IMG/VR virus record: IMGVR_UViG_2693429677_000014
Span: 1 to 10,757 of that record
DNA from: a virus
Taxonomy: Duplodnaviria; Heunggongvirae; Uroviricota; Caudoviricetes
DNA: 10,757 nt
Reading direction: 5' to 3' (one strand)
Under the pieces are notes generated by a model, which was given only the letters and a program-made list of their open reading frames with translations, ran no database searches and was not told the origin of the DNA. Positions 8,688 through 9,968 of the stretch are shown here, one piece after another. Numbering within the stretch: the stretch's first letter is position 1; each line of letters begins with the position of its first letter. The position numbers and the translations under genes are program-made.

Positions 8688-8759
8688 TGTAGTGGCACAC
8701 TGAATTTGGCCACCTGAACAGAGGTGATATGCTCACCTCAGAACAACACAGGTGCTCCA

Positions 8760-9062
8760 ATGAAAAAAAGAAATTTCAGCGCAGAGTTTAAACGCGAATC
8801 CGCTCAACTGGTTGTTGACCAGAACTACACGGTGGCAGATGCCGCCAAAGCTATGGATATCGGCCTTTTCACAATGACAAGATGGGTCAAACAACTGCGT
8901 GATGAGCGTCAGGGCAAAACACCAAAAGCCTCTCCGATAACACCAGAACAAATCGAAATACGTGAGCTGAGGAAAAAGCTACAACGCATTGAAATGGAGA
9001 ATGAAATATTAAAAAAGGCTACCGCGCTCTTGATGTCAGACTCCCTGAACAGTTCTCGATAA
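8760..9062 (+). CDS. insN: IS911 OrfA (HTH transposase regulator)
   Basis: [100 protein letters not shown], the characteristic IS911 OrfA; the ORF-track start at 8724 is an upstream in-frame extension. Confidence 0.85.
9011..9017 (+). promoter_or_regulatory. Programmed -1 ribosomal frameshift slippery heptamer A AAA AAG (IS911 orfA to orfB)
   Basis: AAAAAAG at 9011-9017 in the orfA frame (codons AAA 9012-9014, AAG 9015-9017); the downstream orfB frame is -1 relative to orfA. Confidence 0.7.
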
Positions 9063-9930
9063 TCGGGAAACTCAGAGCGCATTATCCTGTGGTCACACTC
9101 TGCCATGTGTTCGGGGTTCATCGCAGCAGCTACAGATACTGGAAAAACCGTCCTGAAAAACCAGACGGCAGACGGGCTGTATTACGCAGTCAGGTACTTG
9201 AGTTGCATAACATCAGCCATGGTTCTGCCGGGGCAAGAAGCATCGCCACAATGGCAACCCTGATAGGCTTCAGAATGGGGCGCTGGCTTGCCGGCAGGCT
9301 CATGAAAGAACTGGGACTGGTCAGTTCTTTCATGAGCCTGCGCACCGTTATAAACGAGGTGGTCGTGAACATGTCACTATCCCGAATCACCTTGGGCGGC
9401 AGTTCGCAGTGACAGAGCCAAATCAGGTATGGTGCGGCGACGTGACGTACATCTGGACGGGGAAACGTTGGGCATACCTTGCCGTTGTTCTCGACCTGTT
9501 TGCAAGGAAACCGGTAGGTTGGGCAATGTCGTTCTCTCCAGACAGCAGACTGACCATCAAAGCGCTGAAAATGGCCTGGGAAATCCGCAGTAAACCAGCC
9601 GGGGTAATGTTCCACAGCGATCAGGGCAGCCACTATACAAGCAGGCAGTTCCGGCAGTTACTGTGGCGTTACCAGATCAAACAGAGTCTGAGTCGACGAG
9701 GAAATTGCTGGGATAACAGCCCGATGGAGCGCTTCTTCAGGAGTCTGAAAAACGAGTGGATACCGGTGACGGGTTACATGAACTTCAGCGATGCTGCCCA
9801 TGAAATAACGGACTATATCGTTGGGTATTACAACGCGCTCAGGCCGCACGAATATAACGGTGGGTTGCCACCAAATGAATCGGAAAACCGATACTGGAAA
9901 AACTCTAAAGCGGTGGCCAGTTTTTGTTGA
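9016..9930 (+). pseudogene. insO: IS911 OrfB (DDE transposase) disrupted by a frame change near 9322-9342
   Basis: ORF-track pieces 9089..9412 and 9409..9930 are in different frames; upstream piece ...[16 protein letters not shown] then nonsense, downstream frame resumes ...[38 protein letters not shown]... with the DDE core ([21 protein letters not shown]). Confidence 0.8.
9294..9341. repeat. Perfect 20-bp inverted repeat (GCAGGCTCATGAAAGAACTG / CAGTTCTTTCATGAGCCTGC) with 8-bp spacer, inside IS911 orfB at the frame break
   Basis: Arms 9294-9313 and 9322-9341 are exact reverse complements; the orfB reading frame changes within the right arm. Confidence 0.85.
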
Positions 9931-9968
9931 CCACTACAAATTGGCGACGTTAGCGTTACAGATATTAA

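Follow-up and report, generated by a model that had tools for sequence, protein, structure and literature searches.

The question raised by this locus is how an insertion sequence (IS) came to stand between two genes of unrelated origin, with a different triplet on either side of it. IS911 belongs to the IS3 family, moves by a copy-out/paste-in mechanism and leaves a target duplication of 3 bp (rarely 4 bp). An element resembling it occupies 1251 bp of the stretch of DNA analysed here (the window, 10,757 bp), which is the entire contig CYBT01000044.1, reversed, of the E. coli draft assembly GCA_001277775.1. The initial annotation had taken the absence of the duplication as the trace of an event that fused two islands, either recombination between two IS911 copies or an IS-adjacent deletion. 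The element is made up as follows:

8688 to 9938, plus strand: IS911-like insertion sequence of the IS3 family, with hybrid flanks, 1251-bp allele; ends fixed by comparison with relatives.
8688 to 8723, plus strand: IRL, 36 bp, with 24 of 36 positions equal to the right end (counted on the sequence).
8760 to 9062, plus strand: orfA, intact, 100 amino acids, HTH_Tnp_1 (Pfam PF01527, E = 5.9e-14), matching the N-terminus of NCBIfam transpos_IS3.
9011 to 9017, plus strand: A AAA AAG programmed -1 frameshift motif, read from the sequence; intact relatives are annotated "programmed frameshift".
9089 to 9930, plus strand: orfB (DDE transposase frame), split by a +2 frameshift into 9089-9412 and 9409-9930 in the list of open reading frames.
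9294 to 9341, no strand: perfect palindrome with 20-bp arms (9294-9313 and 9322-9341), from the comparison of alleles.
9903 to 9938, minus strand: IRR, 36 bp, agreeing at 33 of 36 positions with the published 36-nt IS911 IRR oligonucleotide TGAAGTGGTCAACAAAAACTGGCCACCGAGTTAGAG (PMC2909936, Table 1).

The ends of the element are certain, because the empty sites of both flanking genes fix them. The left terminus reads TGTAGTGGCACACTGAATTTGG... and the right terminus ...CAGTTTTTGTTGACCACTACA (element termini TGTAGTGG; 5' start TGTAGTGGCACACTGAATTTGGCCACC, 3' finish GGTGGCCAGTTTTTGTTGACCACTACA), and the terminal 8 nt are perfect inverted repeats. Orthologous copies in relatives end at the identical nucleotides, there with a CTA/CTA duplication, which independently confirms the boundaries and the length of 1251 bp assigned to the element from the beginning. 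The triplets outside it are CTA on the left (8685-8687) and AAT on the right (9939-9941), as had been reported; the 3-bp target-site duplication of IS3 and IS911 elements is present in the orthologous copies at the xis site and missing in the window, and moving the IS boundaries by 1-2 nt produced no direct repeat of 2-5 bp.

The name given to the element needed some adjustment. Like IS911, it measures about 1250 bp, has TG...CA termini and imperfect inverted repeats of 36 bp, with 33 of 36 positions of the IRR conserved, and carries a 100-aa orfA, an A6G -1 frameshift motif and an orfB of the DDE (rve) type; its orthologues are flanked by a 3-bp duplication. In contrast to IS911, its termini are TGT rather than TGA, and the allele present in the window is non-autonomous, owing to the +2 frameshift in orfB, and has no duplication. 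Identity with the IS911A fragments of K-12 is 88.6% over 762 bp, and the RefSeq label for the element is "IS3 family transposase" only. From its sequence, the element is best described as IS911-like, and to that extent the original name holds; that it is IS911 itself is not demonstrable from an IRR match of 33/36 and 88.6% identity to the K-12 fragments.

Two alleles of the element circulate, of 1249 and 1251 bp, and they differ in that the 7 nt GCCAGCA of the shorter one are replaced at 9326-9334 by the 9 nt CTTTCATGA. This change, which has the look of a templated quasi-palindrome mutation, turns the imperfect palindrome of the 1249-bp copies into a perfect one. A second effect is a +2 shift of orfB, which leaves the DDE domain in an ORF of its own, with HTH_21 and rve/rve_3 in separate frames (NCBIfam transpos_IS3, 212.6 bits, in the downstream one); relatives with the 1251-bp allele are annotated "frameshifted". 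Because orfB is frameshifted, the copy in the window is unable to make its own transposase or to move itself.

To the left of the IS lie the following features:

7292 to 7339, plus strand: 48-nt copy of the 3' end of tRNA-Thr (thrW), matching that of CP039404 exactly and forming the att repeat that separates two tandem islands.
7352 to 8512, minus strand: tyrosine integrase, intact, 386 amino acids, of a thrW-integrated lambdoid prophage (Pfam Phage_integrase, E = 3e-34).
8389 to 8687, minus strand: excisionase-like (xis) remnant without about its first 16 codons, collinear with the protein of E. coli 536, with a weak HTH_17 match.
8685 to 8687, no strand: CTA, left member of the 3-bp duplication that the ancestral insertion made in xis, the right member being missing in the window (from relatives and the empty site of E. 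coli 536).

This flank had been called the xis/int module of an IntF-type island. The module is as described, with xis upstream of the integrase and interrupted by the IS after about codon 16. The IntF label had to be abandoned, as a BLASTP search against IntF of K-12 (b0281) returned a best E of 0.26 and no meaningful alignment; in closed genomes the identical integrase protein (WP_001375035.1) is encoded at one end of a lambdoid prophage that carries exo, bet, gam and others, and adjoins tRNA-Thr (thrW). The integrase of the window is preceded by the 48-nt copy of the thrW 3' end rather than by thrW itself, and a search of the window for a complete tRNA found none. Before the 48-nt copy there is a second island, in tandem at thrW, with a GmrSD-type DUF262 gene and a ParA operon. 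Exact-protein look-ups with the integrase, a Mu gp48-like protein, ParA and an 84-aa integrase fragment returned canonical contexts only.

In at least ten relatives (L005-L007, L010-L014, L039 and L045) an IS occupies the same nucleotide of xis in the form CTA/IS/CTA. On its right side this copy, here copy A, continues into the 5' end of xis (CTACCTTCAGATACG...), the canonical arrangement being int-xis'/IS/CTACCTTCAG.... When the IS and one CTA are taken out of L005, what is left is an ORF collinear with a 115-aa HTH protein of E. coli 536, in which the empty site (...TTTGTCTACCTT...) has a single CTA and the uninterrupted xis reads ...TTTGTCTACCTTAAGATACG.... Because CTA is found on both sides in relatives, copy A arose by simple insertion, with duplication of 3 bp, and of its two junctions the window retains the left one only. 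In CP027550 and CP148363, copy A is accompanied by an adjacent deletion of 712 bp.

To the right of the IS, the window ends with two features:

9939 to 10667, plus strand: P4-type integrase pseudogene, 3' portion from codon 141, of the ssrA/EspC island (100% over 729 bp to closed genomes).
10666 to 10757, minus strand: IS100 terminus (istB end), which truncates the integrase remnant and reaches the contig end (3,987 records, annotated IS100kyp istB).

That this flank is the 3' part of a P4-type integrase was correctly recognised from the start. The 729-bp stretch from 9939 to 10667 is present at 100% identity in 239 closed genomes, and its DNA shares 96.7% identity with codons 141-384 of an intact ssrA-adjacent integrase of 413 aa (L027, 3579-4820); it falls in the 3' 273 codons of that protein, and the 5' 140 codons are missing. 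An intact relative scores 928 bits on NF007246 (P4-type, PRK09692). The fragment is homologous to a full-length protein with Arm-DNA-bind_3 and Phage_integrase, and belongs with the ssrA-linked P4-type integrases, such as CP4-57 IntA and the integrase of the EspC island (PRK09692). Unlike the intact integrases linked to ssrA, the fragment in the window is a pseudogene: in addition to the loss of its 5' part, its 3' end is cut by IS100, and it contains a frameshift and two internal stops, as in relatives, with Phage_integrase matches on both ORF pieces. The junction between integrase and IS100 is real, because the independent assembly JOQR01000063.1 has the same junction followed by a complete IS100; exact scans for this junction in the GTDB representative genomes and the JGI metagenomes gave no match.

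IS-free copies of this integrase read ...CCTGCAATTGGCG..., and the right-hand gene is uninterrupted (...CCTGCAATTGGCGACG...) in several genomes; together with the whole xis of E. coli 536, the uninterrupted forms of both flanking genes that the initial annotation had proposed to look for do exist. The junction IS/AATTGGCG is found in at least seven closed genomes (CP027550, CP039403, CP039404, CP148268, CP148363, CP027103 and CP070229) and in several drafts, and in the first five of these closed genomes and the drafts it is located at the ssrA end of the EspC island. On the left of this second copy, here copy B, stands a different integrase, about 78% identical (...CTT/IS), or a version of it with a 1015-bp deletion (...CCG/IS), the latter seen in CP027550. 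Canonical copy B is intA...CTT/IS/AATTGGCG, the sequence on the intA side being ...GGTGGGCTTACTT. The left junction that copy B presumably had at first, ...CCTGCAAT/IS, was found in none of 5,426 closed E. coli genomes; since this junction is absent and the left side belongs to another integrase, the original left flank of copy B must already have been lost. At the B site of the LR7781xx genomes the IS is inverted (flipped copy in LR778142).

Each junction of the window is thus identical to the junction of a separate resident copy in relatives, and this supports the view that the element is a hybrid, its left junction being that of copy A and its right junction that of copy B. The earlier conclusion that it is not a simple insertion, and that its flanks come from unrelated loci, stands, A and B being separate in relatives. 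The IS of the window has the same sequence (100% identity) as copy A in CP148268 and in three draft genomes. A single SNP, at 8869, sets it apart from the B copies of CP148268 and CP039404, the A allele being T and the B allele C. In the nearest relatives A and B are identical over the last 1070 bp or so. Because only site 8869 separates A from B, a crossover cannot be mapped more finely than 8869-9938; an exchange between the two copies would lie from IS position 183 to the right end. The hybrid itself was sought in the 5,426 closed E. coli genomes, none of which covers 80% or more of 8100-10600, and the whole window used as query gave the same result; closed relatives have from 1 to 6 places that match the IS-containing query.

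The position of the two copies bears directly on how they could have been joined. In all of the closed genomes with both flanks (7/7), the flanks are on the same strand and 2.2-2.6 Mb apart, and in the four checked in detail (CP027550, CP039404, CP148363 and CP148268) the A and B copies are direct repeats separated by 2.24-2.58 Mb. On the K-12 map, thrW and the ssrA region with rrnG lie on opposite replichores, as delimited by oriC and dif. A single crossover between copies so arranged, directly repeated and on different replichores, would split the chromosome in two, and with the arrangement of the closed relatives an island fusion in one step would not be viable. Two unrelated loci are indeed joined in the window, as had been proposed; a simple fusion of the two islands is the part that fails.

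A and B also share their history in another way. Within genomes, A and B have in common the complex 1251-bp allele, as well as C at 8869, and both alleles vary from one genome to another. This distribution implies that A and B interact in vivo by ectopic gene conversion.

Of the ways in which the window could have acquired its structure, the one that we prefer, with a probability of roughly 0.55, is that the join was made in silico by the assembler. The program, or a scaffolder, would have entered the collapsed IS repeat from copy A and left it by the wrong exit, into copy B. We favour this origin because the direct repeats bar a one-step route and because A and B are identical over about 1 kb in the nearest relatives; ordinary read pairs would probably be insufficient to cross some 1 kb that is identical in at least two copies, as it is in those relatives. 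Several traits of the contig go in the same direction: (i) the sole instance of the hybrid is one short contig of a draft assembly. (ii) This draft contig has a multi-copy repeat inside it and is bounded by another, its right end lying 92 nt into the multi-copy IS100, which is typical of short-read contigs. (iii) The contig holds an exact direct repeat of 164 nt, and the assembler therefore did thread repeats. Near the left end of the contig there is also a Collar/Baseplate_J junction ORF, which in its 102-aa version has no other contig in the gene-position index and in its 103-aa version no record in an exact-protein look-up. A search for literature on accession GCA_001277775.1 found none, and the assembly method is thus deduced from the contig.

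Compared with chimeric short-read contigs, the window shows the same combination of a short draft contig, ends in repeats and an arrangement unique to one assembly, as well as an internal repeat which, at about 1 kb, exceeds the usual insert size and does not differ between the copies of close relatives. It departs from them in that the IS100 boundary was handled conservatively, the contig being broken there. Three further considerations weigh against an assembler's join. With only one IS copy in the strain, a de Bruijn assembler would pass through the element without error, and the junction would then be genuine; the shared alleles argue that A and B do interact in vivo; and the strain differs truly from all its closed relatives elsewhere, in the junction between integrase and IS100 and in the tandem island at thrW, so that its chromosome may well be arranged in an unusual way.

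These considerations lead to the only serious competitor, which we judge the less probable of the two, namely that the hybrid is genuine and arose in vivo by RecA-dependent recombination between A and B, after an earlier rearrangement had inverted their relative orientation. Both junctions are inherited ones, as homologous exchange predicts, and the gene conversion visible in closed genomes indicates that the copies do pair in vivo. The IS has, moreover, lost flanks repeatedly, as judged from the 712-bp deletion at A, the 1015-bp deletion at B, the joining of two integrases at B and the flipped copy of LR778142. An unbroken contig across a 1.25-kb IS is likewise what would be expected if the IS were single-copy or correctly resolved. 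A possible first step is suggested by the K-12 map, where thrW is at 262.9 kb and rrnG is about 25 kb from ssrA, and where rrnH lies about 34 kb before thrW: an inversion between rrnG and rrnH would flip the ssrA locus and leave only about 60 kb separating it from thrW. The IS copies, now in inverted orientation, would then serve as the ends of a further inversion, creating int-xis'-IS-int' and the reciprocal intA-IS-xis5'. The first step could also have been an inversion via IS100 copies.

Hybrid IS copies produced by homologous recombination resemble the window in taking one junction from each resident copy, in having duplications that do not match (here CTA and AAT) and in an IS sequence that fits either parent. 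They differ in that the parental copies of the closed relatives are direct repeats on opposite replichores, which allow neither an inversion nor a deletion in one step, and in that the reciprocal junction (intA-IS-xis 5' end) was not observed. The in vivo route therefore requires at least two independent large rearrangements, and this route is itself unobserved; none of the 5,426 closed genomes has the hybrid, all seven of the informative ones keep the flanks on the same strand and megabases apart, and the hybrid is known from a single short draft contig. The most elaborate version of this reading would have the junction produced by successive large inversions, for example rrnG with rrnH and then IS with IS, joining the integrase module of an immobilised thrW prophage to the integrase remnant of the EspC island, and would add to it an ectopic conversion between A and B that, over about 2.4 Mb, spread the transposase-killing quasi-palindrome mutation from one locus to the other. 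We consider this whole sequence of events unlikely.

Beyond the in silico join and the multi-step rearrangement, all other readings taken together are improbable. A deletion next to the IS was one of the two origins put forward in the initial annotation; taken together with a one-ended or intramolecular transposition of copy A into the P4-type integrase, it has in its favour that IS-adjacent deletions of this element occur at both loci and that such an event would be expected to leave the duplication missing on one side. However, the junction IS/AATTGGCG pre-exists at the ssrA locus in relatives, and a second, independent strike on the same nucleotide would be very improbable; the deletion would have removed more than 2 Mb of essential chromosome, and the transposase frame of this allele is broken. 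The pre-existing junction effectively refutes a deletion or a new transposition as the source of the right-hand junction, and we regard this origin as highly improbable. The other origin put forward, recombination between two copies, fares better, as the signature of an exchange is there, with the reservation that the join may be the assembler's. A simple insertion whose duplication has decayed, or whose ends were wrongly called, can be invoked only as a general possibility and has a negligible probability, as no IS-free relative has the flanks side by side (the left one leads into the 5' end of xis and the right one is preceded by the 5' part of the integrase), the empty sites fix the boundaries and shifts of 1-2 nt give no repeat. 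Neither a duplication on realignment nor a contiguous pair of flanks, the two observations by which the proposal of a recombinant copy was to stand or fall, was made.

An assembler's join thus remains the reading that we prefer, and whichever origin is correct, the element combines two known copies and is no novel kind of feature. Both phenomena are textbook matter: rearrangement through IS elements leaves behind hybrid copies whose target duplications do not match, and short-read assemblies are prone to chimeric joins where they cross an IS. The locus has little biological weight and serves in practice as a caution: where a draft contig lacks a target duplication, an island fusion should not be assumed until long reads or PCR confirm it. 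If the join were real, the chromosome of the strain would have been rearranged in several steps, in an unusual manner that brought together the island hot spots at thrW and ssrA. Of modest interest for the evolution of IS elements is the finding that a frameshifting mutation, apparently templated, is present in two IS copies 2.2-2.6 Mb apart, which points to ectopic conversion between them.

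Within the IS911-like element (an IS3-family insertion sequence, here the 1251-bp allele), comparison of the 1251-bp and 1249-bp alleles located a clustered change at 9326-9334, GCCAGCA to CTTTCATGA, which makes a 20-bp-arm palindrome at 9294-9341 perfect, introduces a +2 frameshift in orfB of the longer allele and resembles a templated quasi-palindrome mutation. We followed the two alleles in closed E. coli genomes carrying one copy in xis of the thrW-integrated lambdoid prophage and another in the P4-type integrase pseudogene of the ssrA/EspC island. Both copies carry the 1251-bp complex allele in CP039404 and CP148268, and both are of the 1249-bp type in CP027550 and CP148363, which implies that these loci, 2.2-2.6 Mb apart, have undergone ectopic gene conversion.

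The sequences adjoining both copies have also been remodelled in related genomes. At the thrW copy, an IS-adjacent deletion of 712 bp on the right side, found in CP027550 (locus L001) and CP148363 (locus L043), takes with it two small genes as well as the CTA on that side. At the ssrA copy the loss is on the left, where 1015 bp of the adjoining integrase gene intA are missing in locus L002 (CP027550) and in locus L038. A different arrangement occurs at the ssrA site of LR778142 (locus L042, 1752-3000) and of the related LR778146 and LR778152. There the IS runs in the opposite direction with respect to the integrase remnant: the left terminus (IRL) of the element meets AATTGGCG at the identical nucleotide, and the sequence on the far side is different. 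Homologous recombination of whole copies cannot yield such an arrangement, and the junctions suggest either an event mediated by transposase or an insertion targeted to the site beside the IS end.

Elsewhere in the window, the following features were identified.

Features of the contig outside the IS911-like element
230-393 and 1369-1532: exact direct repeat of 164 nt, bracketing a segment with a Mu gp48-like gene
1261-1569, minus strand: Collar/Baseplate_J_C fusion ORF
1823-3772 and 4643-6544, minus strand: GmrSD-type DUF262 protein with GmrSD_N and GmrSD_C domains, and ParA-family ATPase with two small unannotated ORFs
7292-7339: 48 nt duplicating the 3' end of thrW, between the DUF262/ParA island and the lambdoid integrase
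10666-10757: 92 nt of the istB-side terminus of IS100, at the contig end, truncating the P4-type integrase remnant

Near the left end, comparison with locus L016 revealed both the 'flipped' and the 'unflipped' junctions of an invertible tail-fibre segment on this contig, with a junction at 1368/1369, and a protein look-up matched the fusion ORF to no contig but this one. Two explanations are possible for the repeat and its junction: the scar of a deletion or inversion specific to this strain, or a second anomaly of the assembly, produced by a switching invertible segment. Between an invertase remnant and the att repeat sit the DUF262 and ParA genes, accompanied by fragments of dinI, a umuC-like DUF4113 gene and an SRAP peptidase gene; they resemble cargo of the defence type carried at the end of a prophage. 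This cargo is widespread, being present in thousands of assemblies. Here the thrW 3'-end copy separates it from the lambdoid integrase, an arrangement that indicates tandem elements at thrW. The same position in other genomes is taken up either by the yagP-pao backbone or by one of various islands with a P4-type integrase.

The integrase/IS100 junction was not found in any closed genome carrying the integrase remnant; it is also present in JOQR01000063.1 (locus L028), whose flank has 2 SNPs. Comparison of loci L029-L037 with L031, L004 and L040 revealed three states of the EspC-island integrase: (i) IS-free; (ii) with IS100 inserted at the 5' end, as annotated for E2348/69-type genomes; and (iii) cut short by the IS911-like element and lying behind a second integrase, intA, 78% identical. 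Taken together, these three states show that IS elements have repeatedly moved at the ssrA hot spot.
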